Shown piece after piece: positions 18,366-43,215 of a stretch of 64,000 nt of DNA. The notes under the pieces were generated by a model. That model was not told where the DNA came from. It saw only the letters and a program-made list of their open reading frames with translations, and made no database searches. A program made the position numbers and the translations under genes. Source of the stretch: a virus (lineage: Duplodnaviria; Caudoviricetes); IMG/VR virus record IMGVR_UViG_3300028591_000073, positions 230,549 through 294,548 of that record; one strand, 5' to 3'. How positions within the stretch are numbered: the first letter of the stretch is position 1; every line of letters starts with the position of its first letter.

Positions 18366-18397
18366 ACAGCCTGAGCATGCTGTATAAAAACTGCTCA
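18366..18397 (+). ncRNA. Predicted H-type pseudoknot (PK1)
   Basis: ACAGC-C-TGAGCA-T-GCTGT-ATAAAAAC-TGCTCA. Confidence 0.6.
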
Positions 18398-18480
18398 TTT
18401 CTTTTATAAAAAATCTGACATATCATGTCATAAGAACCCAATAGGTCGATATGTTCAGATTCTAAAAAGGAGGTAATCTT

Positions 18481-19014
18481 ATGACACATGAACAATATGA
18501 ATTTATTCAAGGACTTCAACAGGATATTCTGAAACGGGTTGCTTATGCAAACCCGGCATGCGTCCTCAGTCAGTCTGAACTTGCCATTCTGTATCACGGC
18601 GGCGAGTTCGATGAAATTCATCAAGCCGAAATCGGATTTTCCAATGATGATGAAACTGGAATAAAAACCATTATCATCAACAGATATGTGAATGACAAAC
18701 TGGTTTTTCACCAGTTCATTGTCATTGAGAATCCAAATCCAGATGAGGAAACACCATATGGCGTCACAACAGTGAACACCGATTTCAACGGTGATGCTGA
18801 CTGTGATATCATAGCTGTTCTGTACAGTCACATCCCAGGTATGTCCTGGCGAAGAGTGGAAGACAGAACTGTCACCTTGTGCGACAAACTGGACAATGTT
18901 ATTCGTCAGGCGCAACAGCCCAGCTTCGAGGAGTTTATCCACAGAATCATTGATGAGAGACTCGCGGAAGGTCCTGGGAATTGGGACGATGATGGCGAAG
19001 ACAAGGATGCATAA
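18481..19014 (+). CDS. Acidic early protein
   Basis: 177 aa, SD AAGGAGG, acidic C-terminus. Confidence 0.75.
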   Translation: MTHEQYEFIQGLQQDILKRVAYANPACVLSQSELAILYHGGEFDEIHQAEIGFSNDDETGIKTIIINRYVNDKLVFHQFIVIENPNPDEETPYGVTTVNTDFNGDADCDIIAVLYSHIPGMSWRRVEDRTVTLCDKLDNVIRQAQQPSFEEFIHRIIDERLAEGPGNWDDDGEDKDA

Positions 19015-19034
19015 TCTAATTCTGAGTCATCAAT

Positions 19035-19102
19035 ATGACCTGAGTAAGTCATTAAACTGCTCATCGTTATATAAGACCAGCTCATGTCTTAAGAAACCGA
19101 GC
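19035..19102 (+). ncRNA. Two tandem predicted H-type pseudoknots (PK3, PK4)
   Basis: ATGAC-C-TGAGTA-A-GTCAT-TAAAC-TGCTCA and TAAGAC-CA-GCTC-AT-GTCTTA-AGAAACC-GAGC. Confidence 0.6.
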
Positions 19103-19127
19103 GTACATTCCAAAGGAGGAACTATTT

Positions 19128-19670
19128 ATGGCAAAAATAATCAATGAAGACAACCTCAGTGCAGGTGTAACACAGTACGATGGCAACCGTGTTGATGTTA
19201 TGGCAGAAGTTGCCAAACAGCAGTATCGCACTGCTTCTGATGAATTGCATAAAGCAATTTATGCAATGGAGATGTTCAACATCTTCATGGAGCAGCAGAT
19301 GCATGCCGGCCTCGATGTATTTGATGGCGGAAGCCATTGTACATTAAAAGGTGGGTATGATGGTCCCTGGTACTTCGACCCCACCAGACCAGAGACAGTA
19401 CGTCTCTCCACACAGGGTGGTGAAGGACCGGATGTGACAATATCCGAACTCAAGTGCTTTTCCGCACACTGGGCTTACAAAACGAGCGGAGGGGAAGCAA
19501 TCATCTGGCTTACGGCATATCCAGATGAGGATTTCCCGGACCACATCATCTTCGAAATCGAAGAGGAATTCGAAGATGAATATGGTGAACCGAATCACTT
19601 CGGAACCAGTGACTCTGATATGTTCCATAACGGAACATTTGACCCGTCGAAGGTCTCCGGCATCATCTGA
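19128..19670 (+). CDS. Acidic early protein
   Basis: 180 aa, SD AAAGGAGG. Confidence 0.75.
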   Translation: MAKIINEDNLSAGVTQYDGNRVDVMAEVAKQQYRTASDELHKAIYAMEMFNIFMEQQMHAGLDVFDGGSHCTLKGGYDGPWYFDPTRPETVRLSTQGGEGPDVTISELKCFSAHWAYKTSGGEAIIWLTAYPDEDFPDHIIFEIEEEFEDEYGEPNHFGTSDSDMFHNGTFDPSKVSGII

Positions 19671-19690
19671 TAGACTTTCTCCGCTGAAAG

Positions 19691-19743
19691 GCGGAGGAGA
19701 TGAGTATATGAATTATCGTATATTGATCTCCTCCGCTTTTTTC
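19691..19743. terminator. Long-stem terminator between convergent units
   Basis: GCGGAGGAGAT...ATCTCCTCCGC followed by a T run. Confidence 0.7.
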
Positions 19744-19747
19744 TTGT

Positions 19748-21913
19748 TTAATAAAATTGATTGATGCTTTGGAAGAATGACATATCTGCAAAACTTAAAT
19801 GATCTTCTTCAGGTTGTTGTTGTGCTCGTAATCGAGCATTATATTGATCCATGCGATAGCCATATGGATCGACACCGCCAGGTTTTTCAATTCCCATACG
19901 TTTATCTTGCACATTCTTATCAACTAAATCACGTAACAATTGATTCTCATATGCATCTGGATTTTCATAATAGACAACATTATTGACGACATCTTCTTGG
20001 ACAGCTTTTTCATATTCTTGTGTAATCTGATATGCTTTCTCAAATGTTTGATACTCTTTATAGATACCGAATCTACTTAAATCATAGCCGTATGTCAACA
20101 CATATAAGACATGACAGTATGCCATCACAACGTCATCATGTTCACCCTTGTCTGCTTGAATCTTACCACCTAAGATTGTCAAGTTGGTAATATCTCGAAC
20201 TAAGAACTTGCAATAGATCATGTGTCGATAATCATGTACAAATCGTTTTAACAAAGCCATCATATCATTACGCACTTTTTGTGTCACGTTTGTACCAATA
20301 TATTTTTTGATCTGCGCTTTTTGTTTCATTCTAATTTCATTATCTACTGTCTTTACTAATGCATTCTTTGTCATATCTAATTGAGGATCGTGATAGAATC
20401 GATATTCCAATTCCGATTCCGCAACCCATTCAATCAATGCTTTACCAACAGAATTGGTTTCTGGACAAAAAATAGCTCTTGGTAACATTTTTGCCAATGT
20501 TGCAACAACTCGGATTAAATCCAAATTACATCCCAAATACGGGGAGCATACAATTCCTGCAATCTCCAAAGTATATGGATGAACAATCAACAATACCGTA
20601 TTATCACCACCCGTACCAGCTGCAACGTCGATTCCCACTAAGTATGGGACATCCACATCGAAGTATTGATATTCAGATTTGATATCTACTTTCTGTACAG
20701 TGTGATTGTAAACATACAAAACATATTTGTTTAATAACATGATTTCATGATCTGGATTTCGTACATTTGCAATGAGATAATCAATGTCTTCTTGTAAGAA
20801 AATACTCGTGTCAGAACCACGATATCTTTCTAACAAGATACCACGACGATACTCGGAAATATCATTTGCAATCATCGCTGCTTGGTATTGTTCCGCTACC
20901 CATGCTTCTGTTTTACGTAATTGCTTCCAATCATATTCAATATAAACTTTTGTGATTGGTGTTTTTGTACCATCGGTTTCTGTTAAATCCATTCCCGTAA
21001 ACATCTCTTTGATTTCCTGTTCGGATAAATCATACATCTTTTCGGAAAACCGTGGTGTTGCTTCAATAATCTTCATGGCTTCTCTACCAGTCGTTGTTTC
21101 CAAGTTGCCAGGTGTCGATGCGTACATCATACAACAACGAATACCCATCTTTCTTGCATTTTCACGGGCAGAGATCATAGCTGGTGCACCACCAGAAACA
21201 ACAGCTCCGACATATGGAAGATATTCCCATTCGTCTACAAACCCTCCAAACAATGTATATCCTCTCAGTTTGTCTCGCGCTTTGTCTTCTGAATCCGCAA
21301 CAGATACAATGGCGATACTGGTTCCATGTTCCTCGTATTTCAATGACTTTGTGCCAGGTGGATGCTTTCTACCATACCATGGATTGAGATATGGTGGTAA
21401 TGCTTCAATATAATCACGTAAGATACCAGCGTTATCAGTACAACGTGTTTCTGTCAAGTGTAAGTATGGAATGTCACAATTCTGATATTCGAATAAAAAC
21501 ATATAAGATACGATAGAGGTTACCCACGTTGTTTTTCGATTTTGTCGAGGAACACATACTTCGAAATCAATAGAATGGTCGAAGCACCATACCATGGCCG
21601 CAGCCATTCTGGATAAATCCGTTGGCATTTTACCAACACCACGAACGGGAATTTTTTGTACTTCTCGAAAAAAGAACCATGGATTTGCTTTACATTCCAA
21701 TGTGATCTTTCCGATTTCTTCTGGAGTGATGTCTTTTTTATACGGATCGATATCTTGCACACCCAATTGAGGATATACAACACGTAATGGAAAATACCAA
21801 TTCTTGACACCAACAGCTCTTAATTCTTGACACGTTTGCAAAAAAGAAGCATTCTTTGTGCCAAGGTCATAATAGCCATTGCCGATACGAATGACGTTAG
21901 ACATATTGATCAA
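19748..21913 (-). CDS. terL: Terminase large subunit
   Basis: PRQNRKTT (Walker A), FVDEWEY (Walker B), ASTPG, GIDVAAGTGGD (RNase H-like), PETNSVG and HDDVVMA. Confidence 0.9.
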   Translation of the reverse strand: MINMSNVIRIGNGYYDLGTKNASFLQTCQELRAVGVKNWYFPLRVVYPQLGVQDIDPYKKDITPEEIGKITLECKANPWFFFREVQKIPVRGVGKMPTDLSRMAAAMVWCFDHSIDFEVCVPRQNRKTTWVTSIVSYMFLFEYQNCDIPYLHLTETRCTDNAGILRDYIEALPPYLNPWYGRKHPPGTKSLKYEEHGTSIAIVSVADSEDKARDKLRGYTLFGGFVDEWEYLPYVGAVVSGGAPAMISARENARKMGIRCCMMYASTPGNLETTTGREAMKIIEATPRFSEKMYDLSEQEIKEMFTGMDLTETDGTKTPITKVYIEYDWKQLRKTEAWVAEQYQAAMIANDISEYRRGILLERYRGSDTSIFLQEDIDYLIANVRNPDHEIMLLNKYVLYVYNHTVQKVDIKSEYQYFDVDVPYLVGIDVAAGTGGDNTVLLIVHPYTLEIAGIVCSPYLGCNLDLIRVVATLAKMLPRAIFCPETNSVGKALIEWVAESELEYRFYHDPQLDMTKNALVKTVDNEIRMKQKAQIKKYIGTNVTQKVRNDMMALLKRFVHDYRHMIYCKFLVRDITNLTILGGKIQADKGEHDDVVMAYCHVLYVLTYGYDLSRFGIYKEYQTFEKAYQITQEYEKAVQEDVVNNVVYYENPDAYENQLLRDLVDKNVQDKRMGIEKPGGVDPYGYRMDQYNARLRAQQQPEEDHLSFADMSFFQSINQFY

Positions 21914-21928
21914 GTCCTTTCATAATGT

Positions 21929-21952
21929 TATCGGGGGCATATGCCCCCGATA
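21929..21952. terminator. CATATG-centred palindrome
   Basis: TATCGGGGGCATATGCCCCCGATA. Confidence 0.65.
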
Positions 21953-21983
21953 CATCACATGTTCAGTTAATTACTGATATATT

Positions 21984-24254
21984 TTAGCAATATATTTTGA
22001 TTTGGTTGAGTATGGGAATCAGTTCAATGAACTTTCGATAGACGTGGTCCACATAGTCCATAGGGTAATGTTCAAACAATTTGGTTCCAAGGATAAATTG
22101 GAAGAATTCGTTCAAATCGATTACTCCTCTGCGTTCTTCCTGATACTGAAGATAGTAGGAATTCAATATCAGTACATGACGTAAATCTGGAATGGAAATA
22201 TCCACTGGAATATTTGCCATCATGACAGAGAAGATTTCATCGAATCTTCCGGCTGTATTGTATGAGAACATTTCCGGAGCCATTTTAATACCCATGAACT
22301 TCAGGACATTCTTCAAGTTATCCAATTGTGGGAACTGATTATACTTGCTTGTGTCGATTGCCATGTCGTTTAAATGAGACATGAGAATGGAATTCTCTTC
22401 ATACTGAGAACCACGGAAGTATGTGGTAATCTTGGAGAATGCTTGAATACCAACACCTGCAAGGAAATTGTAAGTGTCATATTCACCAAACTTAATCGGA
22501 TTGTCAGAATAATGTCTCATAGATTTCTTACCAAACAGATGAGACTTTACAGGCTGGTCATACCATGTTGTCTTGGAAGTCGCAACTGCACTCATTGCTT
22601 TGGAAGGTTCCTGTTTCAATACCCAGGTATATTGATATCCGATTGCATACTCTCCAGGAAGTTCAATCCAGCGATGACGAAGCTTTGTATACAACTTGTG
22701 TTTCTTCATGATATCCGGCCATTTCTTATAACAAGTAACCAAAGCATCACGAACACAAACATCATTCAATGGCATAATCTGAATATAGATACCATTCTTG
22801 ATGATATCATTGTATACTTCCACTGGATGCTCGCGATACAAACGAATCAGTTCATCACCATTTGCCGGTTCAAACGTACCAACAAATTCAGCCACCAACA
22901 TCACAATGTCTTGGGGTTCCACACCCTTCGCATGGAGTTTCAATATATGCTCCCACATACGTTCTTGCATAAATGTCATTGTTGCTTCATATGTGGCAAA
23001 TGCAATGATTCTATTAGGCACAGCCAAACCATTTGCCAACATCTCAATGTGTTTCCCATCTTCCGTACGAGGCATGCATTCATCATCAACAATCTTTGTG
23101 ATAACAGATTTGTTACCAAAACGACCAACGACCTTTTGTCCAACATGAATCGGAACATGCTTTAATACTTTGAAACGAATCTGGGTGTCAACAATATATT
23201 CCTTTGTAATCCAAGCAGCATCTGCCAAATACTTTTCTGCTTTATGATACATATCAATCAGTGAGATATCATCCTGATACGGGTCGGTTACAATTGTGGA
23301 GATAAATGCATAGATTTCTTGATAGAAATCCTGACACTGTTTCAGATAATAATTCATCTGGTCATTCTCCAATTCGACATTGGAGAAGATATCAATATCG
23401 ACAATCTGTCCACGGGAATAATAGTTCTTATCGTTGATATGAGGTATCAGTGCTTCTGCGGAAGAAGACAGATAAGAGTTTTCACGAATCGAACAAATGA
23501 TATCGTTCTTGATAAACTCACCGATATTCGGGAATGGTTTGTACAGTTGTAAGGAACCATAGTTGTTGATAAGATAAGAGTCCTTCTTCAGATTTACGGT
23601 TACGATATCCACCATGTCATATTCCAATGCTTTTGCAGCACTCTTGGAAATGATGAGAGCATCCTCTGTTAACTCTGGCAATACGGTATATGCAATTCTC
23701 AGATTACGTCCAGAGCAATAATGTCCATTGATATATGAGGATGACTGTGAGATGGGTGTGCCTTTTGGTAAGGTATCACCAATGTCGTAATTACCAACGA
23801 CACGGTCATACGTGCGAAATCCATACTTCTCAATCAGATTCTCCGCAAGATTTACCTGTTCACATTTGTATTTCCCAGTGACCTTATCACGGAAAACATA
23901 CACAACAGGTGAGATTGGTTCGTTCTTGAATTTCACGAACTTGCGGACAAGTTCATAGTCATTCTTACAAACCACATTCCACGAAGAACGCATACCAAAA
24001 GGGTCTTCTGCACCAGTATACACCCTGGGGAATTCGGGATGTGTTGGTACAACGTATTGGGAAGTGTGGCGTGCAGCCATATTAGAACGAACAGTTGAGA
24101 TTTTGTCGGGGAATGTCATGGCGGAGATACCAACTGTCGACAGTTTGTTCAAACCGTCTACACGATTCTTGATATCCGACATGGTATTCATCATAATCTT
24201 CTTTTTCTTTTTCGGCTGTTCCATGGGTGTTGTTTCGGGCTTTTTCTTACTCAT
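21984..24254 (-). CDS. rpoB: Multisubunit RNA polymerase beta subunit, C-terminal half (probably non-virion RNAP)
   Basis: RSNM, GRNLRIAY, EDALIIS, GQKVVGRFGNKSVI, MPRTEDG, VPNR and KFGEYD. Confidence 0.9.
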   Translation of the reverse strand: MSKKKPETTPMEQPKKKKKIMMNTMSDIKNRVDGLNKLSTVGISAMTFPDKISTVRSNMAARHTSQYVVPTHPEFPRVYTGAEDPFGMRSSWNVVCKNDYELVRKFVKFKNEPISPVVYVFRDKVTGKYKCEQVNLAENLIEKYGFRTYDRVVGNYDIGDTLPKGTPISQSSSYINGHYCSGRNLRIAYTVLPELTEDALIISKSAAKALEYDMVDIVTVNLKKDSYLINNYGSLQLYKPFPNIGEFIKNDIICSIRENSYLSSSAEALIPHINDKNYYSRGQIVDIDIFSNVELENDQMNYYLKQCQDFYQEIYAFISTIVTDPYQDDISLIDMYHKAEKYLADAAWITKEYIVDTQIRFKVLKHVPIHVGQKVVGRFGNKSVITKIVDDECMPRTEDGKHIEMLANGLAVPNRIIAFATYEATMTFMQERMWEHILKLHAKGVEPQDIVMLVAEFVGTFEPANGDELIRLYREHPVEVYNDIIKNGIYIQIMPLNDVCVRDALVTCYKKWPDIMKKHKLYTKLRHRWIELPGEYAIGYQYTWVLKQEPSKAMSAVATSKTTWYDQPVKSHLFGKKSMRHYSDNPIKFGEYDTYNFLAGVGIQAFSKITTYFRGSQYEENSILMSHLNDMAIDTSKYNQFPQLDNLKNVLKFMGIKMAPEMFSYNTAGRFDEIFSVMMANIPVDISIPDLRHVLILNSYYLQYQEERRGVIDLNEFFQFILGTKLFEHYPMDYVDHVYRKFIELIPILNQIKIYC

Positions 24255-24279
24255 AAAACTTTCCTCCTGATAAATGAAT

Positions 24280-25137
24280 TTAATTAATTGGGATTTGTGA
24301 TATCACATCTCTGACGTAAGTTGCACATGGCGAACCTTCAAAGTTCCCCTCCATGATATCCGCCATAGAAAACGACAGGATGAGGTATACCGCGATAATG
24401 ATGTATATGTCAGAATTGAAAACTATATTGGTGCATAATTTACGTAACAATTCATCGACATTAATCACAATTGCTTTATTGTCCACACTTTCAGATGCAT
24501 AAAATGCACAAGTGTGTTCATAATCTGGACCAAAGAAATTATCTTCCATCCATTTTGCAATCTTCTTTTCATTGACACGTCGAGATGCCATGTATTCTTT
24601 CCACTGGTCCAGTGTAATATGTTCAACAGTATATTCGATGACTGGCTTCATGACACTGACTTCTTTCAAATGAATCATTTCAATCATATGCATGAATTTA
24701 AACACACACCAGTAGATCATGATGTCATCTACAACAATATCCAATTTCCCAGGATTCTTTTTCATTTCAATATGAACGGGATCCGTTGCCGGAATAGTAG
24801 CATACAAATCATCCAAGTTGATACGCTTTTTGATTCGCTCATATTCCGGTGTGTTATGACTTACCGTAACAATTTGTGGCACATGTCCATCTTGATTTTC
24901 CAGTTCTTCATCCATATTGTCATTAGGAATGAATAAATCAATTGGATGAGATGTTAGTTCGATATCATCCAAGATGTCTTTATAATATTCCACAAACCCA
25001 AATCGGTCAAGCAGTTTGTGTTTATTGTTTACGAGTTTAATCGTATTAAAGTAGATATTACAGGAATTCACAAGATACTGATGTTGTTTGTAAATGTTTG
25101 TCCACTGTCTATCTAACCCCATGGGTATAAGCATCAT
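24280..25137 (-). CDS. Hypothetical protein
   Basis: 285 aa, SD GAGGAGG. Confidence 0.7.
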   Translation of the reverse strand: MMLIPMGLDRQWTNIYKQHQYLVNSCNIYFNTIKLVNNKHKLLDRFGFVEYYKDILDDIELTSHPIDLFIPNDNMDEELENQDGHVPQIVTVSHNTPEYERIKKRINLDDLYATIPATDPVHIEMKKNPGKLDIVVDDIMIYWCVFKFMHMIEMIHLKEVSVMKPVIEYTVEHITLDQWKEYMASRRVNEKKIAKWMEDNFFGPDYEHTCAFYASESVDNKAIVINVDELLRKLCTNIVFNSDIYIIIAVYLILSFSMADIMEGNFEGSPCATYVRDVISQIPIN

Positions 25138-25342
25138 AATAATCTTCCTCCTCTATATAGATTATCTAAGAACCGTTGGATTCTTCTTTTCGTATATAAT
25201 AATCTTCACGTATCTCGGAATAATTCTCAACAACAAAAGTGATGCCACTTTGTTGAATTAACACCAATACGACAGTATCCAACGTAGTTTGTTGTGGGTA
25301 TGTTTCCATTTGGAATTCACCGTCCTTGGTTGGTTGATCGGG

Positions 25343-25651
25343 TTATGTCAATTCTTCAACAAGTTCTTCCAACGCGTCCGAACTCAACCCACCAATTGGA
25401 GCGGTGGGTTGTAATGCATTCGGAGCAGTTACTTGCTGTTGACTTAACCGCTTATTCTTTTCTTCAAGTTGCTTCAATCGAATATCTCGAAGGACATGCA
25501 AAAATCGAAGCGGCATTTTTGCAAGCACGTCAACGGAAATTATGTTCTTGAATAACTCTCCGTATTCAATGATTTCTAATCCAATTTGATTAAGTTTACT
25601 TCCATATCGCCCAACCTCCGAGATACGCGGAAAAGCAAGGTATTGGTGATG
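25343..25651 (-). CDS. Short ORF overlapping the upstream gene in the -1 frame (possible frameshift extension, tail-assembly chaperone-like)
   Basis: Frame is open from 25651 to 25343 (...IIEYGELFKNIISVDVLAKMPLRFLHVLRDIRLKQL...). No SD precedes GTG 25528. Confidence 0.45.
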   Translation of the reverse strand, partial: HHQYLAFPRISEVGRYGSKLNQIGLEIIEYGELFKNIISVDVLAKMPLRFLHVLRDIRLKQLEEKNKRLSQQQVTAPNALQPTAPIGGLSSDALEELVEELT

Positions 25652-27375
25652 TTATCAATCGGAATGTGATTAGCTTCATAACCACAATAAGGACACTTAA
25701 CACCTGAGATATAGAATTCTGCGGGTTCTGCCATTTCACGGGAATCCAATGCCAATTTCATAATCAGCATAGAATCCTGAAGAATGTTGATATTATCAAT
25801 CTGACGTTCGATATCATCCCAGTTTGTGAAACGATATTCACGATTCGGATTTGTCTTGTCGGGAACATTGATTGCAGAAATTCTCATGAGACAAGCCATC
25901 TTGTTGGAGAAGTTCAGCAATGTAGGATCACCTTGTAATGTTTCTTCATTGAAGTTGTTCATATCCGGATCATCCGGTCTCTTTTCCGTGTATTTCTGAA
26001 TCATCAATGGAAGTTTCTTTGTGATATATTCATATGCACTTGGTTCATTGATTTCCACAATTACACCAGAATTCGGAAGCTTGTAACGGGTTCTCTTTGT
26101 ATTGATTTCCGTAAACAATTTCAATGCTTGTTCGCCAGGTGCTGCATCATAAATCTGACGATAGTTCTTAGGAAGTCTCTCTTCATTCAGATGAATGATA
26201 TTTCTTGGAGAATATTTGAATGTATGACGGCGTTGGCATTTGGGGTTTCCACAAACGATGTCAAGAGGTTCTTCTTCATCAGCAGTTGCTGTTAATACAG
26301 CCCATTCCAGAAAGCTCATATCCGCAAACTTTGTTTTCTTCAGGAAGTCATCAAAGTCTGCAAATGGTCCAATGGAAACATTCTTGATGTGATGATAGAT
26401 GATAGACCATCTCTGCATCTGGAAATCTACTTTAGAATTGGAAGAAGGTGCAGCCAAATCAATTGTTTCAAACCAGTTCACAGGACGAACAACGCATCTG
26501 TATCCAGATAGAGGAAGTGTGACAGGAACATCACACAGACTGGATTCATATGGCTGAATGATATTCGCATCTGTGGGAGGATTCTCAATTACAGTCACAG
26601 CTCTCATATCTTCTTCTGTCACTTCACGAACATGTACATTGACAACATTGGTTCTGGTAAGTTCATGAGCAACTTCTTCTGGAATGTTGACAGTAACAGG
26701 CTGACCAGGTGCAACATTGATATTGATGGTAGCTGGTTTCTCATACTGAGGTGTTGGTCTTGTAACATTTGCAGCATCTGCCGCAGCATTCTGGTCGGTA
26801 TAAACACTGCCACTTTCTGGGTCGATATGCTGCCAGTTCCGAAGAATAATCTGTTCAAATTCAGATGTGATCTTATCACCGGTATTATAGTAAATACCCA
26901 TAAGATCACCTTCAACCTGCTGTAGTCTTTCAGGAATGATACCACCGTGCAGATGATATTTTGCCTTTACTTGTTCAATCATTCCTGTTACGACAGCAAG
27001 ATGATTTGCTTGATGCATAATTGCATCTTCTTGGAATGCAGGGTCCAGTGAACGCGGTGGCATTACTGTCTTCGGCTTGTCGTTTGCATGTCTGTCTTCC
27101 AAGATAGCTTGCTGTTCAGCTCTCTTTTGTGCTTCCAGATTTCTTCCTTCTTCTTCAATTTCTTTCTTAAAATCATTCAAACCATATTCATCATCGTCAT
27201 CATCCTCAATCGGGGGTGAGATTCTGGATACGGTGGGTTCTGGTACGTGAACCTGTGGAGTCATCATCGGTTCTTGTTGAGACTGTGTCGGTTCTTCTTC
27301 AGGTGCACCGAATGTGTCTCTGGCTTTGTTGATGATGTTTGCCAGTGGATCGATAAATCCAGTATTATCTGCCAT
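25576..27375 (-). CDS. Baseplate-hub/tail assembly chaperone-like protein (T4 gp26-like C-terminal region)
   Basis: VTLPLSGY, CGNPKC, LPNSG...EPS and CPYCG...LLF follow a long acidic N-terminus. Confidence 0.55.
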   Translation of the reverse strand: MADNTGFIDPLANIINKARDTFGAPEEEPTQSQQEPMMTPQVHVPEPTVSRISPPIEDDDDDEYGLNDFKKEIEEEGRNLEAQKRAEQQAILEDRHANDKPKTVMPPRSLDPAFQEDAIMHQANHLAVVTGMIEQVKAKYHLHGGIIPERLQQVEGDLMGIYYNTGDKITSEFEQIILRNWQHIDPESGSVYTDQNAAADAANVTRPTPQYEKPATININVAPGQPVTVNIPEEVAHELTRTNVVNVHVREVTEEDMRAVTVIENPPTDANIIQPYESSLCDVPVTLPLSGYRCVVRPVNWFETIDLAAPSSNSKVDFQMQRWSIIYHHIKNVSIGPFADFDDFLKKTKFADMSFLEWAVLTATADEEEPLDIVCGNPKCQRRHTFKYSPRNIIHLNEERLPKNYRQIYDAAPGEQALKLFTEINTKRTRYKLPNSGVIVEINEPSAYEYITKKLPLMIQKYTEKRPDDPDMNNFNEETLQGDPTLLNFSNKMACLMRISAINVPDKTNPNREYRFTNWDDIERQIDNINILQDSMLIMKLALDSREMAEPAEFYISGVKCPYCGYEANHIPIDNITNTLLFRVSRRLGDMEVNLIKLD

Positions 27376-28836: not shown

Positions 28837-28855
28837 TTAAGGAGGAGATGATAAA

Positions 28856-34273: not shown

Positions 34274-34295
34274 GAACGCCCCATATGGGGCGTTC
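34274..34295. terminator. CATATG-centred palindrome
   Basis: GAACGCCCCATATGGGGCGTTC between divergent units. Confidence 0.55.
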
Positions 34296-34302
34296 ACATA
34301 TT

Positions 34303-34368
34303 TTCTATTTTTTTAATTTTTGATATATATATAATTAATATGATAAAGAAGATAATAATCTTTATCAT
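34303..34368 (+). promoter_or_regulatory. Putative early promoter plus hairpin (copy 4)
   Basis: TTCTATT...TGA-TATATATATAATTAATATGA, then ATGATAAAGA...TCTTTATCAT. Confidence 0.7.
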
Positions 34369-34371
34369 ATC

Positions 34372-34560
34372 ATCAGTATTAACGACTACACTCATCATTA
34401 TGAGAAGCCAAATACGGCATAACGAGTCAGACTTAGAAGATGATCACTGATATAGATTAGAGTCTTTGATATCATATTAAACCCTTCAGGTTTGTCATAG
34501 CAAGGTTGAATGCATATATACCTTGGATCTTGTATAAAGATCGCACCTGAGTAAAGGGTA
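34372..34560 (+). ncRNA. Structured leader or candidate ncRNA
   Basis: Two predicted multibranch domains (see findings). Confidence 0.45.
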
Positions 34561-34577
34561 TCCTAAGGAGGATTACT

Positions 34578-34904
34578 ATGACTATCAGATTTACATTTAC
34601 CGGCAGAAGATTCGCGCTTAATGGTTACACATTTTATCTTTCTGCAGAGGTCCAGGAATACATCCTGAAAGCAGCCGGCGGAACCATTTCGGGATGCTGT
34701 TATGAAGCACTGGGACAACGCCTGCTCGACAAGGCGAACCCGTACCTCCATTGCAGCAGCTTCCCCCGTGACGAACTCCGCGGCCTCTGTAAGGCCGCAA
34801 CCGACCATCATCACTATCACCACATTATTGCGACAACCGCCAACTGTCGCAGAATCGGAAAAGCCGCAGCTGCAATCCTCAGCAGCTGCGCTACTGTCCG
34901 CTGA
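34578..34904 (+). CDS. GC-rich Cys/His-rich early protein
   Basis: 108 aa, SD AAGGAGG, HHHYHH, visibly higher GC than the flanks. Confidence 0.7.
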   Translation: MTIRFTFTGRRFALNGYTFYLSAEVQEYILKAAGGTISGCCYEALGQRLLDKANPYLHCSSFPRDELRGLCKAATDHHHYHHIIATTANCRRIGKAAAAILSSCATVR

Positions 34905-34958
34905 GAGTGATGGAAAATCATCCCGCATGCAATGCCGCCGGCATGCGGGATGATAACA

Positions 34959-34995
34959 AAAAGCAGATGGTATGCCGCCGGCCATCTGCTTTTTT
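34959..34995. terminator. Bidirectional terminator
   Basis: AAAAGCAGATGG...CCATCTGCTTTT. Confidence 0.75.
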
Positions 34996-35941
34996 ATTTT
35001 TTTCTCAACTCGTAAGTCCGATTTAAAGAATCTTTTGCATAACCAGCTTCACGATTGATTTCCGTAATGTCTGATACAGGATTCGGATAATCGTCCAATA
35101 ATTCTCCAGATTCAGAAAATGTTGCAAATTCCGTATCTTCATCAGAATCTCCAATCAACACAACTGTTGTTGGATTCTCCGTTTCATATTGTGTATACTT
35201 ATCCAGCTTTCCTAAACCAACTGCCCCATTCAGAATATCTTCTGCACGATCGATATCCGAAGCAATGGTTTGTGGATCATAAGAATCATTATAGTTAACG
35301 GGAACCCCAGCTGGTAATTTATCAAAGATATCATCCAATACAGAATGTCCGATATCAGAACCAGTTGTTGGTAATACTCCAGGATCACCACCTTGTGGAG
35401 TACCACCACGTGCAAGCTGTTGCTGTTGCTGTTTCAATCGTAATTCAGAAATGTTTTTCTTGATATTGATCATTTCTTTATTGATACCAGTAACAGCAGA
35501 TCTTGCGGCTGTTAATGCCTGCATTGCTTCAATGTCATTTTCATTTAATCCAAACTTATCTTTGTCTTTTAAACCTTCCATCAATTTCTTTTCGAATAGC
35601 TTTGTGATACGAACTTGATCAGCTGCTGATGTACGCAGTGCAGCCAACTCAGCCGTATAGATTTTGTTTGGATCAATCTTATTGTCGATAATTGTTGCGG
35701 GTGCTCGAGAAGACTCATCGAATGATGCAATAATCCCAGTAACACCTCCCCAGTTGTCATATGCATATGGGGAGATATACTGGGTTGCATTTGGATATAA
35801 TGTGGGCTCCATTCGGTAAGCATTAAATTCATTTGCAAATGATTGTGGATTTGTGTACATTTGTTGCTGTTGTTGTGATTCGATGTCTGGAATTAAATGT
35901 TCCATTTCACCGATTGCATCAAATAAACTCATAAGTGTCAA
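34994..35941 (-). CDS. Hypothetical protein with coiled coil
   Basis: 315-aa ORF, SD GAAAGGA. Confidence 0.7.
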   Translation of the reverse strand: MTLMSLFDAIGEMEHLIPDIESQQQQQMYTNPQSFANEFNAYRMEPTLYPNATQYISPYAYDNWGGVTGIIASFDESSRAPATIIDNKIDPNKIYTAELAALRTSAADQVRITKLFEKKLMEGLKDKDKFGLNENDIEAMQALTAARSAVTGINKEMINIKKNISELRLKQQQQQLARGGTPQGGDPGVLPTTGSDIGHSVLDDIFDKLPAGVPVNYNDSYDPQTIASDIDRAEDILNGAVGLGKLDKYTQYETENPTTVVLIGDSDEDTEFATFSESGELLDDYPNPVSDITEINREAGYAKDSLNRTYELRKK

Positions 35942-35975
35942 TTCCTTTCGTAATAAATTTGTATCGAGAGGTTGA

Positions 35976-36242
35976 CTAGTTTTCTTGATTCAAATAATCT
36001 TGAATACAATCCTTACATGATCTCCCAAACTCACATGGAATTGTTTTTTCTTCGATAATATCCAAGATACACTTTCCATCTTTATCTTTGATCTTATCAT
36101 TGATTTTTAATAACAAATCATACATGTTTGTGTTTATTAATTTTAAACGGTTTGTCATGTCATCGTTCCTCCTCACATTGTATTCATTTACCAATTGATC
36201 ATAGCTCTTAATGGAATCATCTTCCATCCAGAACTTCGCCAT
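35976..36242 (-). CDS. Small protein with C-terminal Cys cluster
   Basis: SD GAGGTG before MAKFW; C...CEFGRSCKDC. Confidence 0.65.
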   Translation of the reverse strand: MAKFWMEDDSIKSYDQLVNEYNVRRNDDMTNRLKLINTNMYDLLLKINDKIKDKDGKCILDIIEEKTIPCEFGRSCKDCIQDYLNQEN

Positions 36243-36268
36243 TGTTATCACCTTCTTTATCTAAGAGC

Positions 36269-39200
36269 TCAACCCGCATTTGTCATTGTTTTGGGAGGTG
36301 TCTGTGGTGGTTGATTCATTCCGCCATTTGTCATCGTAATATTACCTGCAGAATTTTGTTTGATATATTCAGATGTCATCGTTGCCATTTTATCAAGTTC
36401 TGCTTTTTGTTTGTTCACAATCATCACAGTGTTATTGATATACCATCTGATGGATCTCCACGGTTGTTCATTTTCACTAGGTGCCCCAACTAACATTGCC
36501 AACATATCATTTGCTCGCTTCTGGAATGTGATTAATTTTTGTTGTGTTTTATTCACATTATTTCGATTCTTTTTTGCTTCAGCAACTTCCATTTCCAAAC
36601 CTTTTAGAATTTGTGAAAATGCATTTTGCAATTGCTTGGATTGCTGGTCTAATTGTGACAAACGATTTGCCATATCATTAAACTCGGATATTTTCATCCA
36701 TTTTGGTGGCTGATCTTGCTGTAACGTTAATAGTTTAATGATATCTCGTTGCAAATCATTCAATGATCGTGTCCCATTCATTTGTGCAGACTCTGTAACG
36801 TTTGTTGGTATATTCGAAAATTTGGTTGCATAATTACTACCCATTTGTGTGATTCCATTCATATCGGTATGACAAACTTGCATTGCGTATTGTGTAAACA
36901 TATCATATGCTGAAATCACATTATTCAAGCATCCATCATATGGTACTAGCACTTTATAGATTATGATGTCATATGTGGTTGGATCATCGGGTTTCTGTAC
37001 AAGTTTGAATTTAATATTCTTAAACTTGTTTTTGATCTTCACAGGAAGTTGTGATTTGTAAATCAGCTTCTTTGTGTTATTTGGATCAAAATTTGGATTT
37101 GTTGTTTGTGTGATAATCGGTTGCTCATTCTTTTGATTCATATTCTTGATTTCATCAATCACTCGATTGGCTTGTGTGATTGTTTCACTGTTGATATTTT
37201 GTGATAACGATTCTGTTGAGTTCACAATCTGTTGAAGTACGTTTTTCATGTTTTCATCAGAATTTGTCATCACATCTTGTTTCGCTAATTCGATGATCTC
37301 GGAAAATCTTGTTAAGGTTGCAATAGAACTTGCGAAGTTAGAATTATCAACGATTTGTTTCACTTCTTCTTTTAGTTGATTGATTTGATCTTCATATGCC
37401 TTTTTCTGATCTTCGGAAACCTGATTCATTTGACTTGTGAGCTTATCAATTAATTCTTGTTTTGATGAAGCATTTTGTTGAACAGTCTCTGTCAGTTGTT
37501 TTACCTGGTCATTCAATTGTGTGATCTGATTCACAAGATCTTCTGTTTTTGCTTGTCCATTTTGGATTGCACTTATGATATTCGTCAACATCTGCTGCTG
37601 GGTTACATTGAATTGACCCATCTTATTATTCAATTCTTGCTGTCCTTGCTGTAAACCATTTAATTGTTGCTTCATTGCACCCATGCTTTCACGTTGGTCA
37701 TTTGCGATGGTTTCCAGCCTCTGACCTTGTTGTGTTTGGGATTGTTGCAAGCCGTTCAATTGATTCTGTATGTTTGCTTCAGCACCAGCTCGATATCCCA
37801 TGTGGTCATCCAAGGATTGTTGTAAGTTATTCACGTTGGTGTTCACATTATTAATCTTGCCATTGATTCTGGTTTCCGTGTTTTTAATATTTGTTGCCAA
37901 AGCATCAGCAGTATTTATTGTATTATCATTAATTTCATTTGTTGTATTTTTTAAATCTTCAGCAAACTTCTGTTCCAGTTCTGCTTTTGCATCATTTAAT
38001 GCAGTTAATGTTTCTTGCTTTGCTTTATCAATTTGAGAAGAAAGGGCTCCATCGTTTGCATTTAATGTATGAACTGCATTTTCAATATTATCATTTGTGG
38101 ATCTTTCTACATCGCGGATTTGACCACTAATTGATTTACGAGCATCCTTTATATCTTTTCTAACACCAGCCATACTGGAGCTCAACTGTTGAAATTTTGT
38201 TTTTACATTTGACAATATCTGATTTTGTTTTGTGTTAACTTTGGTGAGATCTTTGTCAACATTATCAACCTTCGTTTCAACACTGTCCACTTTCGATTCA
38301 ACACCATCAACCTTTGTTTCAATGTCAGACAACTTTGTTTCTGCATCTGTTACTTTTGTTTGAATATCACTTAATTGACTTATAAGTGCGGCAACTGTGG
38401 GATCAGATGGATCCAATCCAGAAGGAGTTGGGGTTGGAGTTGGACTTCCAGGTGTGGGTGTAGGGGATGCACTAGGAGGCGGTGCTGCACCAGGTAAACC
38501 TGTATAATTAATATTGTAAGTATGGGTATCTCCCTTTGATCCACCACTACTTCCTGTGTTCGCATATACCCCATTACCTAAGATTCTGTCAAGAAATCTG
38601 CCAACAGGGTGGAATCCATTTGCTGGAGTAGGACCAATGAAACTGCTGTTGATATTATTTCTTTTAGCATTCGCTTGAGTTCGAGCCAACTTTGCTTCTG
38701 CTGCTCTCTGTTTTGCTTCTGCAACTTGTGCATTTGTATTTGCACGATTAATTCTACCTTGACCGAACAAATTATTTTGCAATTCACGTAATGGCTCTAA
38801 TAAATTTGGATTTTTTTGTGCGGCTGATTTCTTCAATGCAGAAAATTCTTGTTGCTTTTTCAGAATCTCAGTACGCTTATCCAAACTTTGAATATATAAA
38901 TCCAATCCCTCAGGATCATGTTTCATATACCAGTTAACAGTAGCTGTTGGTGATAATGCAGCCAATGCGGGAAGCTTTTGTGGAACTTTACCATTTGTCA
39001 TTTCCTTAACACTGGACAAATCCGATCTAAGTTCATTCAATTGTTGTGATAAAGCTTGTTGATCTTCTTCAGAAAGATTGCCAGAACTCAATTGTTGTTC
39101 AAGTTGACTGAACTGCTGTTCCACTTGAGACAACTTGGATTGCATTTCCTGACTGGTCTTTTGTGCATTACCACCACCAGATTGATTGGGATTATTTGGC

Positions 39201-40015
39201 TGATTCGCATCATTCCCAGCTTGTGCATCTCCATTATTATCCGAACCAATACCAAATGTTTGTTTCAAGGAATTCAATAATCCACCAACAGTACTTTTCT
39301 TTTTTGCAACATCTGCATCTAATTGATCTGTGCTTTCACGTAAAGATTCTACGTCTAATGGGGTGGAACGATTGAACTCACCACTGTTGTTTTGATCATT
39401 TGGAGTTGGTAGTTGGTTTGGATTTTGTTGTTCATTGGGAGATGTTTGTGAACCATCTGCATTTGCATTCTCATCTTGTGTGAATATTTGTGCAATATCA
39501 TTTTCCGTTATTTCTGCATTTGCTTCTGGATCATTTGCATTCTCCGTTGGAAATTGTTGTGGGGTTTCTTCCGTAGCTTCTTGTTGTTCATCCTCAGGTG
39601 TGGGATCTTGCGTTTCCACATTCTTTCCTCTTGTGAACAAACCTTTGATCCAACCAATGATCTTTCCAAAGAAACCGAAGATCGCACCAAAGATTCGTTT
39701 GATGACACCGATGATTTTATCCAATAATGATGGATTCTGTTGTGGTTGTGCATCACCTGTCTGTGGCTGCTGTTCACCACTTGTGGGTGCAGGTGGTTCT
39801 GATGTTGGTGTAGAGGATGATGGTTGTTCAGATTGTGATGGTTGCTGATTTTCATTTCCAGCTGTTTCTGGTGGTGTGGTATCCCCTTCCAACACATATT
39901 GCTCCATGATTACCTCTTTTACGAGATAATTGGATAATTGATACAGCACTTCGAGTTCATATTCTTCTTGCTGTTCCTGAATTAGTTCATCAAATGTATA
40001 TCTCATGAATATCAT
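36269..40015 (-). CDS. Large coiled-coil putative internal head/ejection protein
   Basis: Acidic propeptide-like N-terminus ending YVLE-G, amphipathic KIIGVIKRIFGAIFGFFGKIIGWIKGLF, Pro/Thr linker and heptad repeats. Confidence 0.55.
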   Translation of the reverse strand: MIFMRYTFDELIQEQQEEYELEVLYQLSNYLVKEVIMEQYVLEGDTTPPETAGNENQQPSQSEQPSSSTPTSEPPAPTSGEQQPQTGDAQPQQNPSLLDKIIGVIKRIFGAIFGFFGKIIGWIKGLFTRGKNVETQDPTPEDEQQEATEETPQQFPTENANDPEANAEITENDIAQIFTQDENANADGSQTSPNEQQNPNQLPTPNDQNNSGEFNRSTPLDVESLRESTDQLDADVAKKKSTVGGLLNSLKQTFGIGSDNNGDAQAGNDANQPNNPNQSGGGNAQKTSQEMQSKLSQVEQQFSQLEQQLSSGNLSEEDQQALSQQLNELRSDLSSVKEMTNGKVPQKLPALAALSPTATVNWYMKHDPEGLDLYIQSLDKRTEILKKQQEFSALKKSAAQKNPNLLEPLRELQNNLFGQGRINRANTNAQVAEAKQRAAEAKLARTQANAKRNNINSSFIGPTPANGFHPVGRFLDRILGNGVYANTGSSGGSKGDTHTYNINYTGLPGAAPPPSASPTPTPGSPTPTPTPSGLDPSDPTVAALISQLSDIQTKVTDAETKLSDIETKVDGVESKVDSVETKVDNVDKDLTKVNTKQNQILSNVKTKFQQLSSSMAGVRKDIKDARKSISGQIRDVERSTNDNIENAVHTLNANDGALSSQIDKAKQETLTALNDAKAELEQKFAEDLKNTTNEINDNTINTADALATNIKNTETRINGKINNVNTNVNNLQQSLDDHMGYRAGAEANIQNQLNGLQQSQTQQGQRLETIANDQRESMGAMKQQLNGLQQGQQELNNKMGQFNVTQQQMLTNIISAIQNGQAKTEDLVNQITQLNDQVKQLTETVQQNASSKQELIDKLTSQMNQVSEDQKKAYEDQINQLKEEVKQIVDNSNFASSIATLTRFSEIIELAKQDVMTNSDENMKNVLQQIVNSTESLSQNINSETITQANRVIDEIKNMNQKNEQPIITQTTNPNFDPNNTKKLIYKSQLPVKIKNKFKNIKFKLVQKPDDPTTYDIIIYKVLVPYDGCLNNVISAYDMFTQYAMQVCHTDMNGITQMGSNYATKFSNIPTNVTESAQMNGTRSLNDLQRDIIKLLTLQQDQPPKWMKISEFNDMANRLSQLDQQSKQLQNAFSQILKGLEMEVAEAKKNRNNVNKTQQKLITFQKRANDMLAMLVGAPSENEQPWRSIRWYINNTVMIVNKQKAELDKMATMTSEYIKQNSAGNITMTNGGMNQPPQTPPKTMTNAG

Positions 40016-40019
40016 CTCC

Positions 40020-41534
40020 TTATTCTTCCATTTTCGTCAATCCATACAAACCATTCAAACATTCAATGGTACATGGAAACATGGTTCGACATTCCATTCG
40101 GATATTATATAATTTAGATCGCATCAGTTTGTCCGCTTGTGCCGTTGCTTCATCCGACCAGATACCCGTGCTCTTAACCGTATCCCCATCATAGTCACCA
40201 CCAATTGCTTTTAAACGTGCATTGGATGGTGTTAAGGTATCTGCAAATAATGTTGACACTTTCATGTGATCCAAATTGGGATCCACAACGGGATATGATG
40301 TGTAAGTATCTCCTTGCCACTGCATCACAGTTGTCGTTGTCGTTGATAATAATACCGGATATGTGAAGAAAGCACCATAGTGGTCACCCATCGGATATCG
40401 ACAACAATACACCATCTTTCCAGCATCAATGACACCTCTCCGGCAACATATAAAAATTGCATCCGTCAATGTCAATGGACGACTGACATGTTGATTGTTC
40501 TTCACATCAAATCCTTCGAATATGATGGGTTTGGTATTTTCTGCATCCAAATACATGATACGGAAACGTGCACCGGGGTTCTTCTCATAGATCTTTATGA
40601 GTGTATCGATGGTTTGGTCATCATAGATATTTGCCAATACTTCAGAATCAATTTCATCCGGATTCGGATGTATCTGAGAAATATGAGAAAAAGAAAAGAA
40701 TTGTTTCATTTGGAATTTGATGAATGGGTTAAACATGGATACAATCGTATGCATGGGATATCCAGTATGATAGATACCAATCTCCGGATTGTCCGTGTTG
40801 TAATGTGGTGCGGAAATAACATTTCTTGCGGCAAATGATGTCGTTTTGGACATCATATGTTGTTGAAAGAATCCCGTCTTAGAGGATACCAAGTTATTGA
40901 TGTATTCATAAATTTGAATTACAAAGTTTTGGAATTTGCAATAAACTTGGTAAACATCCTTTGTGGTGGTATGTGATGTGACACTCTTTAAACCGATAAT
41001 GCCCATATAGATTGTATTTAATTCACTCTTTACCGGACGACCATTTCTTTCACCGACTGGTCTCATCGCAGGTGGTGCTACCAATACTTTATCATTGAAT
41101 AATAATTTCTTTGGTATCTTAGTTAAGATATCGATATTATCCTGAGAACGTGTATTCAATGTTTCTCGTATATTGATTCTATCCCAGATATTATACAAGT
41201 CAACCAATCCACAATATGGTCCTTCTTCATCTGCTTTTAAGATGCCATCTTCCGTTAAAGAACAACGTGTTTCTGCATATGCCATTTTCTTGATGATACC
41301 ACCACTTCTCATAATGATGGTTTTTGCAACATTGGGATTGAAAATATGAATGGGAAGTTTAATATATCCACATCTGTATTCTCGTTCACTATTGGTTTGA
41401 CCAAAGATTTCTTCTGAAAACAATCCTTGTGGATGGAATGTATTCTCAGTAATATAGATACGAGAGGATGTGACTTCTTTCAAATCATTGATCTTGATAG
41501 CTTGATCAATGTCGTATAATCCTTGAATCTTCAT
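40020..41534 (-). CDS. rpoC: RNA polymerase beta' subunit, N-terminal (catalytic) half, probably virion RNAP
   Basis: GLFSEEIFG, PPAMRP, ARNVISA, RYP and catalytic GGDYDGD. Confidence 0.9.
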   Translation of the reverse strand: MKIQGLYDIDQAIKINDLKEVTSSRIYITENTFHPQGLFSEEIFGQTNSEREYRCGYIKLPIHIFNPNVAKTIIMRSGGIIKKMAYAETRCSLTEDGILKADEEGPYCGLVDLYNIWDRINIRETLNTRSQDNIDILTKIPKKLLFNDKVLVAPPAMRPVGERNGRPVKSELNTIYMGIIGLKSVTSHTTTKDVYQVYCKFQNFVIQIYEYINNLVSSKTGFFQQHMMSKTTSFAARNVISAPHYNTDNPEIGIYHTGYPMHTIVSMFNPFIKFQMKQFFSFSHISQIHPNPDEIDSEVLANIYDDQTIDTLIKIYEKNPGARFRIMYLDAENTKPIIFEGFDVKNNQHVSRPLTLTDAIFICCRRGVIDAGKMVYCCRYPMGDHYGAFFTYPVLLSTTTTTVMQWQGDTYTSYPVVDPNLDHMKVSTLFADTLTPSNARLKAIGGDYDGDTVKSTGIWSDEATAQADKLMRSKLYNIRMECRTMFPCTIECLNGLYGLTKMEE

Positions 41535-41593
41535 TCATAATAATCTCCTTTCAAATAATAAAGTTACGAAAACGTTTGAAACATAAAAAGAGT

Positions 41594-41615
41594 GATGGGG
41601 CCATATGGCCCCATC
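41594..41615. terminator. CATATG-centred palindrome
   Basis: GATGGGGCCATATGGCCCCATC. Confidence 0.65.
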
Positions 41616-41770
41616 CAAAATGAAAAAATATAAAGGATTGTTTTTGCACATGTGAACACATTCACATGTGCCGAACTTTGTTAAATCAAATTAATTTAGT
41701 TCAGTTAAGGAAAGTATGCATGAATTGTCAATTGGACAACACATCATGAACTCTAATTACATGTATGGTT

Positions 41771-41827
41771 TTCTATTATTTTAATTTTTCATATGTATAT
41801 TATTTATATGATATAGAAATATATCAA
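41771..41827 (+). promoter_or_regulatory. Putative early promoter plus hairpin (copy 5)
   Basis: TTCTATTATTTTAATTTTTCA-TATGTATATTATTTATATGATATA-GAAA-TATATCAA. Confidence 0.72.
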
Positions 41828-41855
41828 TCATATTATATGAAAGGAGTTGTTCATA

Positions 41856-42044
41856 ATGAACAATCAAAATTCCATTATCAATAAAAAAGCGGCCGGTAAC
41901 ACTCAAAAACCGACCGCCAAAACACCCGACTCACGGATTGCTCCGTTGAGTCCACTATATTCCGGATACAGTAATGTCTGGTTTGTTGACTGGACGCATC
42001 CGGATGCTGCCCGCTTTATACCACTTCCAAACAAAATAAAGTGA
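41856..42044 (+). CDS. 62-aa early peptide, paralogue of 1256..1447
   Basis: SD AAAGGAG; core IAPLSPLYSGYSNVWFVDWTHPDAARFIPLP. Confidence 0.8.
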   Translation: MNNQNSIINKKAAGNTQKPTAKTPDSRIAPLSPLYSGYSNVWFVDWTHPDAARFIPLPNKIK

Positions 42045-42073
42045 GCTATTATATAGTAAGGAGGTGTGTAATA

Positions 42074-42421
42074 ATGTTTATTGATAATGAATTCATGCGT
42101 GAGCATTCTAATGATGCTTATGCCAGAATGCAAGAGGTACTTCGCGCACTGGCATATTATGTCCAGCGTGACTACTTCATTTATGACCCTGAAGCAATTG
42201 GCCGGGAGCTTCAGGTAATGCTTGCTTACCGGTACTCACCGTCATATTCCGAGATCACACTCGGAATACAAGATAATGATATCTTTGTCCTATTGGCCTC
42301 GGCATGGAGGCTGATGGGAATCCCGGATTCCGAATTAGTATCCGAGTGGAATCCGGGAATGTATGTTAAATTAGCCAAGTGGGTTTACGACTGGGCCCAC
42401 TTGACATTCTTCCGCTTCTAG
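42074..42421 (+). CDS. Hypothetical early protein
   Basis: SD AAGGAGGTG before MFIDNE. Confidence 0.7.
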   Translation: MFIDNEFMREHSNDAYARMQEVLRALAYYVQRDYFIYDPEAIGRELQVMLAYRYSPSYSEITLGIQDNDIFVLLASAWRLMGIPDSELVSEWNPGMYVKLAKWVYDWAHLTFFRF

Positions 42422-42434
42422 AGGAGGTGATCTT

Positions 42435-42872
42435 ATGCGGAATCAAAAAGATGATGTGGAACGGCTGATTGCCATCCACATTGTCTCCGCACAGATTGCC
42501 TCTGATGCGGGGAAAGGAATTTATGAGTTAGCGCCGTCGACTCATAAATTCCGCGCGCCACGTCATTTCAAATACACCGTCAAGACGTGGCATATCATGA
42601 CGGCAATCAACCTCATCAGAAATCATCAGACAGGTTTCAATTATTACTTGTCCGATATTGAAGATGACCAGAATGGTTTCGATTCCATTATCGCTTATTT
42701 CGATTTCAAGATCGATAACAAGCGATACCAGGTATCGTTCCATACTCCGTATTCTCAGATTCCACCTGAGATGATGGAGATGTCTGGGTCTGGAAGGAAA
42801 ACCAGATGGAGAAAAAATCACGAATCCTCCAGAGAATCGTGTGAAATGCTGATCCGGCATTTCAATCTTTAA
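42435..42872 (+). CDS. Hypothetical early protein (QVSFHTP motif)
   Basis: 145 aa, SD GAGGAGGTG. Confidence 0.7.
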   Translation: MRNQKDDVERLIAIHIVSAQIASDAGKGIYELAPSTHKFRAPRHFKYTVKTWHIMTAINLIRNHQTGFNYYLSDIEDDQNGFDSIIAYFDFKIDNKRYQVSFHTPYSQIPPEMMEMSGSGRKTRWRKNHESSRESCEMLIRHFNL

Positions 42873-42879
42873 GGAGGAT

Positions 42880-43215
42880 TGACCGAGCTGTATGTCGTTA
42901 AAAGAATAGCGTGTCTCGTGAAAAAGGATCTGATCATAATATCATTATCACATTTCGATGTGAATGAAATCTAGAAATGATCGAGATCAAAATAACGAGG
43001 ATCATCCCATGGGACTCACATTCCTGTGAGGGTTCCGGCGTCGACCTGAGAAGGGGTTGGTAGTGAAGAACATATTGAAAGTCATGTAAAAGGCGGCATG
43101 CGTCCTACACAACATCTGTTGGTAGGTTGTGATGAGTAGGTATTAGTATTTGCAAGCCGTGATTGCTTGCCTGATGTGACAGGGGTTGGTAACGCAGGGC
43201 CTGCACTGTGTATAA
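42880..43215 (+). ncRNA. Candidate structured ncRNA region beginning with pseudoknot PK5
   Basis: No ORF of 60 aa or more; nested stems with a UUCG loop and several other hairpins. Confidence 0.5.

Follow-up and report, generated by a model that had tools for sequence, protein, structure and literature searches.

A coremin-like RNA pseudoknot that recurs across bacteriophages and in early-type transcription units of a jumbo phage, where it may act as an exonuclease roadblock

Introduction

Exoribonuclease-resistant RNAs (xrRNAs) have been described from eukaryotic viruses, and bacterial RNase J1 is said to be an enzyme that they never meet in nature; in vitro, however, bacterial RNase J1 is halted by a flaviviral xrRNA, which indicates that such blocks are mechanical (PMC5760640). 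Coremin, a hairpin of 4 base pairs (bp) with a conserved spacer, stalls both Xrn1 and scanning ribosomes (PMC10520033), and coremin forms whose second stem is Watson-Crick paired (xrRNA-WCC) also resist Xrn1 (PMC10321173). Here we examine five small elements, PK1 to PK5, in intergenic spacers of the last 64 kb (hereafter, the window) of a 294,548-base virus record, IMGVR_UViG_3300028591_000073, which is estimated to be complete. An earlier note on this DNA had read all five as H-type pseudoknots, each with a first stem (S1) and a second stem (S2), that form a repeated RNA device of early operons.

What is new here is a coremin-like variant that occurs phage-wide, of a kind already known in RNA viruses. 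The points tested directly are the covariation of each stem separately, the removal of PK2 from the family, a clade-specific cassette of PK3 and PK4, the exceptions to co-occurrence with RNase J, and a bias towards downstream U-tracts. We found no description of the element in phages, either in Rfam or in the searchable literature on coremin or xrRNAs together with phages or RNase J; most subscription journals lie outside that scope, and a prior description is possible. A literal search of papers for the sequence gave no match. The elements likewise had no Rfam match at the gathering score, in the window or at 36 carrier loci, and Rfam 15 returned nothing relevant even at E values up to 10.

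Covariation and distribution of the PK3 family

The five stem sets were all found in the window as they had been written (Table 1). The generic layout is not above chance, as a loose scan of the window for H-type pseudoknots gave similar counts on the plus (34) and minus (36) strands, and that scan was discarded as evidence. A tighter descriptor, written post hoc with the elements already known, matched PK1, PK3, PK4 and PK5 in the window's spacers (4 matches; 300 dinucleotide shuffles gave a mean of 0.05 and never more than 1) as well as 10 sites genome-wide (0.16, maximum 2, in dinucleotide shuffles). Independent proof of the fold comes from searches in which one stem or the other was unspecified: both stems covary.

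Matches to a 26-nucleotide (nt) pattern derived from PK3 were found at 86 viral loci and 22 genome loci, and the 27-nt family amounts to about 280 non-identical loci in phages, prophages and RNA viruses. When S2 was left unspecified, 79 distinct sequences were recovered, in which each of the five S2 pairs is formed in 80-96% and four of them show double changes, so that the pairing of loop with spacer that defines a pseudoknot is present; when S1 was left unspecified, 70 distinct sequences showed 80-100% pairing at the four S1 pairs, all of which covary. In the joint alignment 94.2% of cells are paired, with double changes at eight of the nine pairs (209 double-change cells, compared with 49 in shuffles). 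Sliding the partners along this alignment lowers pairing to 25-51%, and mutual information at the stem pairs reaches 1.2 bits, compared with shuffled maxima of 0.1-0.3. The stems tolerate G-U pairs, and copies are oriented 208 sense to 4 antisense, 208 of the 212 lying downstream of a same-strand gene; the tolerance and the position together show that the family is conserved as structure at the RNA level. Its unpaired bases are near-invariant, and a search aimed at 7-nt loops recovered loops of 8 nt whose position 2 is C.

Copies are located between genes or in early-type 5' leaders, and 111 of them begin no more than 20 nt past a stop codon, with a modal distance of 5 nt from stop to S1. The neighbouring genes, which include genes for minor head proteins, scaffolds, integrase and tRNAs and, in RNA viruses, for the RNA-dependent RNA polymerase (RdRP) or an S-domain coat protein, have no common function. 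At eight loci (L293, L035, L110, L118, L150, L155, L157 and L302) a tRNA or tRNA-like sequence follows the knot after a few bases. The cultured cyanophage Cylindrospermopsis virus RM-2018a (MH636380.1; L292) has six matches to the PK3 query, and the one inspected lies among small genes, 8 nt past a stop.

The other elements of the window

As the earlier note had it, PK1, PK3 and PK5 follow soon after a stop codon (7, 20 and 7 nt downstream of a TAA, respectively), and PK1/PK2 and PK3/PK4 stand in tandem in consecutive spacers. PK1 is likely a longer-loop variant of the PK3 family; a homolog is present at C1:215918 in the genome, and PK1 is kept in the relative L367. PK2 leaves the family: at minimum energy it folds into a long hairpin (-13.3 kcal/mol), and because the variants in the related phages L291, L366 and L368 have lost the S1 pairing while compensatory changes conserve the outer and middle helices of the hairpin, we regard a long hairpin as more likely than a pseudoknot. 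Leader hairpins of the PK2 type, with an asymmetric loop around UCAU(A/G)AG and possibly a small three-way junction, were seen at window positions 18414-18458, at C1 124157 and around 142165-142215 in the genome, and in L291, L366, L368 and L369, always just 5' of a ribosome-binding site (RBS) and in early-type units.

PK4 and PK5 are clade-specific pseudoknots with weaker support than PK3. PK4 was found in this phage clade only; its relatives (L089, L361 and L366-L369) include a compensatory change in S1, and S2 is invariant and thus uninformative. PK3, PK4 and the RBS constitute a leader cassette that relatives reuse before different genes. PK5 is identical in the relative G023, where the surrounding 400-nt region is 87% alike; S2 is invariant and no covariation was seen, and this identity demonstrates conservation rather than pairing. 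The non-coding stretch past PK5 (42990-43290, plus strand) is also conserved in G023 and contains several GC-rich blocks, one of them found again in a spacer at C1 215470-215632, and had no Rfam match. A variant spacer, with UUAAAA and then G in place of C-U, occurs in L360, L361 and at C1 4745 and suggests a further subtype, to which PK5 may belong.

Genome-wide we count about 16 related elements, more than the earlier note had listed. Fourteen of the 16 lie no more than 1.1 kb downstream of an early-type promoter motif, whereas only 32 of 118 spacers have one within 2 kb. The elements are not confined to the early operons of this phage, the PK3 type being phage-wide. Pseudoknots of other sequence types were also noted in early-type units outside the window, at C1 215081-215147, 215475, 215918, 216041 and 177292-177315 (minus strand).

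Comparison with coremin and other known RNAs

The family was compared with coremin because the RNA-virus matches pointed there: the exact 26-nt core is found after the RdRP and S-domain coat genes of eukaryotic-type RNA viruses. [quoted passage not shown] The spacer UUAAAC-U(G/A)C is likewise that of coremin, although UUAAAC was fixed in our search patterns and the longer, A-rich spacers of PK1, PK4 and PK5 resemble it only in part. Unlike xrRNA-C, the phage form combines a loop of 8 nt, in which position 2 is a pyrimidine, with a full 5-bp Watson-Crick S2, usually lacks an adjoining second hairpin, is often followed by a U-tract, and resides in DNA phages, where Xrn1 is absent. Loops of 4, 6, 7 and 8 nt can work in coremin, and both an 8-nt loop and a 7-nt loop one U shorter than that of PK3 are Xrn1-resistant (PMC10520033). 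One RNA-virus-like contig, L096, carries both the 8-nt-loop phage form and a canonical coremin hexaloop.

The WCC form found in Sanxia picorna-like virus 5 (PMC10321173) shares with the phage form a canonical S2 that joins the loop to the end of the spacer, GAG/CUC pairs, and a position a few nt past a stop; in WCC itself the loop is 4 nt long, S2 comprises 3 bp, and both a G as the first loop (L1) and a second hairpin are required, while L1 of the phage form is C plus a pyrimidine and its S2 is 5 bp. The luteoviral frameshift pseudoknots of Beet western yellows virus (BWYV) and Potato leafroll virus (PLRV) are similar in size and have an A-rich loop thought to lie in the minor groove of S1; the phage knots, however, lie past stop codons with no overlapping frame, and the BWYV knot does not stop Xrn1. 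The antitoxins ToxI, antiQ and CptI of type III toxin-antitoxin systems (PMC5086642) are also small H-type pseudoknots, in CptI with L1 reduced to one base and with a second loop rich in A, and the monomer fold is one that the phage knots share; by contrast, the latter occur without a repeat array or a nearby toxin gene, inside mRNA spacers, and with a sequence common to several phyla.

Because the phage form breaks the coremin rule for loop position 2 and mostly lacks the second hairpin, we place it outside coremin, as a variant that may work like it.

A possible RNase J roadblock and the evidence for and against it

Of the functions that the earlier note had offered for a repeated RNA device, the existence of which our data support, an exonuclease-blocking fold fits best, by way of the likeness to coremin. 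We put at roughly even chances a roadblock to the 5'-to-3' exonuclease RNase J that protects downstream early cistrons. PK3 and PK1 (PK4 and PK5 probably likewise) would fold by themselves into compact coremin-like pseudoknots; an early polycistronic mRNA, cut in its AU-rich spacers or trimmed from its 5' end, would be degraded by RNase J as far as the knot and no further, leaving a stable RNA with the knot at its head, followed by the next RBS and gene or, in other phages, by a tRNA or non-coding RNA. The tandem of PK3 and PK4 would double the block and may replace the second hairpin that coremin needs, and the phage would in this way need no protein of its own to set how stable individual early cistrons are. 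This reading presumes that the mRNA is cleaved upstream, that RNase J stalls and that the phage benefits. Protection of downstream RNA is favored because there are copies 44-127 nt behind a promoter, with no gene upstream, 13 copies behind terminator-like hairpins, and copies directly 5' of tRNAs.

The host range of the carriers is skewed. Matches in cultured phages, from five BLAST queries, came from phages of Staphylococcus, Lactobacillus, Bacillus, Anoxybacillus, Moorella, Arthrobacter, Mycobacterium, Rhizobium, Paracoccus and Lentibacter and from cyanobacterial phages, so that the hosts belong to Bacillota, Actinomycetota, Alphaproteobacteria and cyanobacteria, a skew given without a host denominator from INPHARED. 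Enterobacterial and Pseudomonas phages make up a large share of INPHARED, and enterobacterial plasmids a large share of PLSDB. All 16 plasmid matches are from Bacillota and none is enterobacterial, the 65 GTDB loci include no Gammaproteobacteria, and 5,426 Escherichia coli genomes yielded no match. A single match in an Acinetobacter phage (18 nt, inside a coding sequence, E 0.9) was taken as chance. Among 21 carrier genomes, many of which are incomplete, 14 have RNase J above the cut-off, and the E. coli control was without it; no RNase J gene was found in the genome of this phage.

Several observations weigh against a roadblock. The rule tested for the coremin loop, Y-G-(N)n-A-D (with G in first place for WCC), is followed at its first (Y), penultimate (A) and last (D) positions and broken at position 2, where the rule needs G and the 8-nt loops of the family have U or C in 314 of 318 cases, a position that the search patterns fixed, and PK4 has A; an insertion analogous to the phage loop abolished resistance in BNYVV coremin. 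The second hairpin is strictly required for Xrn1 resistance of coremin, and no stable one adjoins any copy in the window. Across the family, a second hairpin of -8 kcal/mol or better follows 25% of copies, compared with 15% at a control position; at -6 kcal/mol it is commoner in RNA-virus-like copies, at 56% compared with 31%. Ordinary frameshift pseudoknots of similar size fail to stop Xrn1. As to the enzyme, three Bacteroidota carrier genomes are without RNase J, crAss-like phages carry the element, co-occurrence is weak evidence because RNase J is common, and the host of this phage is itself known by inference only.

Alternative functions

The main rival is a device for the 3' end of the upstream mRNA, which the knot would cap or define and protect from 3'-to-5' exonucleases, either as a pseudoknot joined to a U-tract, for termination or pausing, or as a toehold-free end that processing leaves (for instance, where RNase P cuts a downstream tRNA). 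A U-tract (at least six U in the next 10 nt) follows 25% of the 251 copies outside RNA viruses, PK1 included, compared with 3-7% at other positions and 5% of RNA-virus-like copies, without correction for relatedness. The position just past stops also fits, as does the knot of Arthrobacter phage Amigo (L293), flanked by a stop and a tRNA with a gap of 2 nt, and such a device would work in hosts without RNase J, such as Bacteroidota. Copies directly behind promoters or behind the 13 terminator-like hairpins, however, have no upstream mRNA in need of an end, and many copies precede scaffold genes, where read-through is obligatory; we consider this function unlikely.

The knot might instead face the ribosome, abutting the mRNA entry channel of a terminating ribosome and uncoupling translation of the downstream gene, whether by blocking post-termination scanning or re-initiation or by slowing termination. 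Coremin does stall scanning ribosomes and promote frameshifting, PK4 and PK2 lie about 10-15 nt upstream of an RBS, and the modal distance of 5 nt is consistent with such contact, but it may merely be the closest site that the ribosome does not unwind, and copies in 5' leaders, before tRNAs or before long non-coding stretches need no insulator. Readthrough is improbable in this setting: the stops ahead of the 111 copies are TAA in 68, TGA in 22 and TAG in 21, in all three frames, and with TAA predominant and no fixed frame a programmed readthrough pseudoknot was ruled out. An insulating role is, in our judgment, decidedly unlikely.

We give slightly less credence to a site at which a conserved factor of the host, or a ligand, would bind, such as an RNA polymerase antitermination element, a protein site or a small aptamer. 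The near-invariant unpaired bases, the four identical copies of PK4 and the enrichment in early-type units (14 of 16 elements, 32 of 118 spacers) would suit such a site; the core common to bacterial phages and eukaryotic-type RNA viruses argues instead for constraints of the fold, coremin mutagenesis assigns the invariant spacer bases to tertiary contacts, no Rfam riboswitch matched, and the neighboring genes offer no shared function.

A type III antitoxin decoy (a pseudo-ToxI or CptI freed from early transcripts), suggested in the earlier note, has in its favor the pseudoknot fold, the tandem pairs in early units and a precedent in the pseudo-ToxI of phage TE (PMC5086642), but is very improbable: antitoxins consist of 2.8-5.5 near-identical, toxin-specific repeats of 34-36 nt (PMC5086642), while the pairs here are unlike each other, no tandem array of near-identical 34-57-nt repeats exists at either spacer, and near-invariance over many phyla and RNA viruses misfits toxin-specific co-evolution. 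A Pfam scan of 90 neighboring genes (37 downstream, 53 upstream) found no type III toxin family, and a ToxN search of this genome, run without a positive control, was empty.

Genome context

The split RNA polymerase subunits in the window have their top matches in the Bacillus phages AR9 and PBS1 and in Staphylococcus jumbo phages, at 25-29% identity, and the virus is an AR9/PBS1-like jumbo phage of 294.5 kb. Because of these matches and the strong Shine-Dalgarno sites, its host is probably a member of the Bacillota. An AT-rich repeated motif, with 27 genome matches at five or fewer mismatches, one of them probably the reverse reading of another, resembles the early promoter consensus of AR9 (PMC5312081) and would be an early promoter read by the virion RNA polymerase.

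Two further features of the window were noted. A group I intron (Rfam RF00028, 70 bits) lies at 15685-15982 on the plus strand, between an open reading frame (ORF) of 159 amino acids (aa) and a helicase-like ORF of 352 aa. Terminator-like GC-rich hairpins with a CATATG or CTTCGG core, one of them at 17951-17972, are found in many spacers and form a genome-wide family.

Table 1. Elements and neighboring features, in window coordinates
Feature	Position	Strand	Remarks
PK3	19035..19063	+	Canonical 27-nt coremin-like member: 4-5 bp S1, 8-nt loop, UUAAAC spacer, 5-6 bp S2
PK1	18366..18397	+	Coremin-like: family loop, longer A-rich spacer, then U-rich tract
PK2 region	18414..18458	+	Probable long hairpin with conserved asymmetric internal loop, just 5' of RBS
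PK4	19072..19102	+	Clade-specific pseudoknot; four identical genome copies
PK5	42880..42910	+	10-nt-loop variant; heads conserved non-coding stretch
AT-rich putative promoter motif, PK1-PK4 unit	18004..18025	+	Heads the unit; repeat matches, likeness to AR9 early consensus
Same AT-rich putative promoter motif, PK5-holding unit	41795..41816	+	Heads the unit
89-aa ORF	18089..18358	+	First gene of PK1-PK4 unit; no PHROG match
Shine-Dalgarno for 177-aa ORF	18467..18473	+	
177-aa ORF	18481..19014	+	Between PK2 and PK3
Shine-Dalgarno for 180-aa ORF	19113..19119	+	
180-aa ORF	19128..19670	+	Last gene of PK1-PK4 unit; then hairpin and U-tract, about 19671-19747
145-aa ORF	42435..42872	+	Upstream of PK5
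Split RNA polymerase beta-type subunit, phiKZ/AR9 kind	21987-24254	-	
Split RNA polymerase beta-type subunit, phiKZ/AR9 kind	51514-53526	+	
Split RNA polymerase beta-type subunit, phiKZ/AR9 kind	57533-59560	-	

Implications

The covarying Watson-Crick S2 provides a concrete model for the coremin fold, for which the literature examined gave no solved structure. More tentatively, and with somewhat less than even confidence, we propose that the 27-nt knot represents an xrRNA natural to bacteria, common to eukaryotic RNA viruses, where it would act against Xrn1, and to hundreds of bacteriophages, where it would act against RNase J without a second hairpin, and that in this jumbo phage it forms part of a movable leader cassette that sets the stability of early cistrons. 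If this is true, a phage element of 27 nt would extend xrRNA biology to bacteria; it would give phages a protein-free means of tuning the stability of mRNAs and tRNAs, and would offer a very small mRNA stabilizer for Bacillota.

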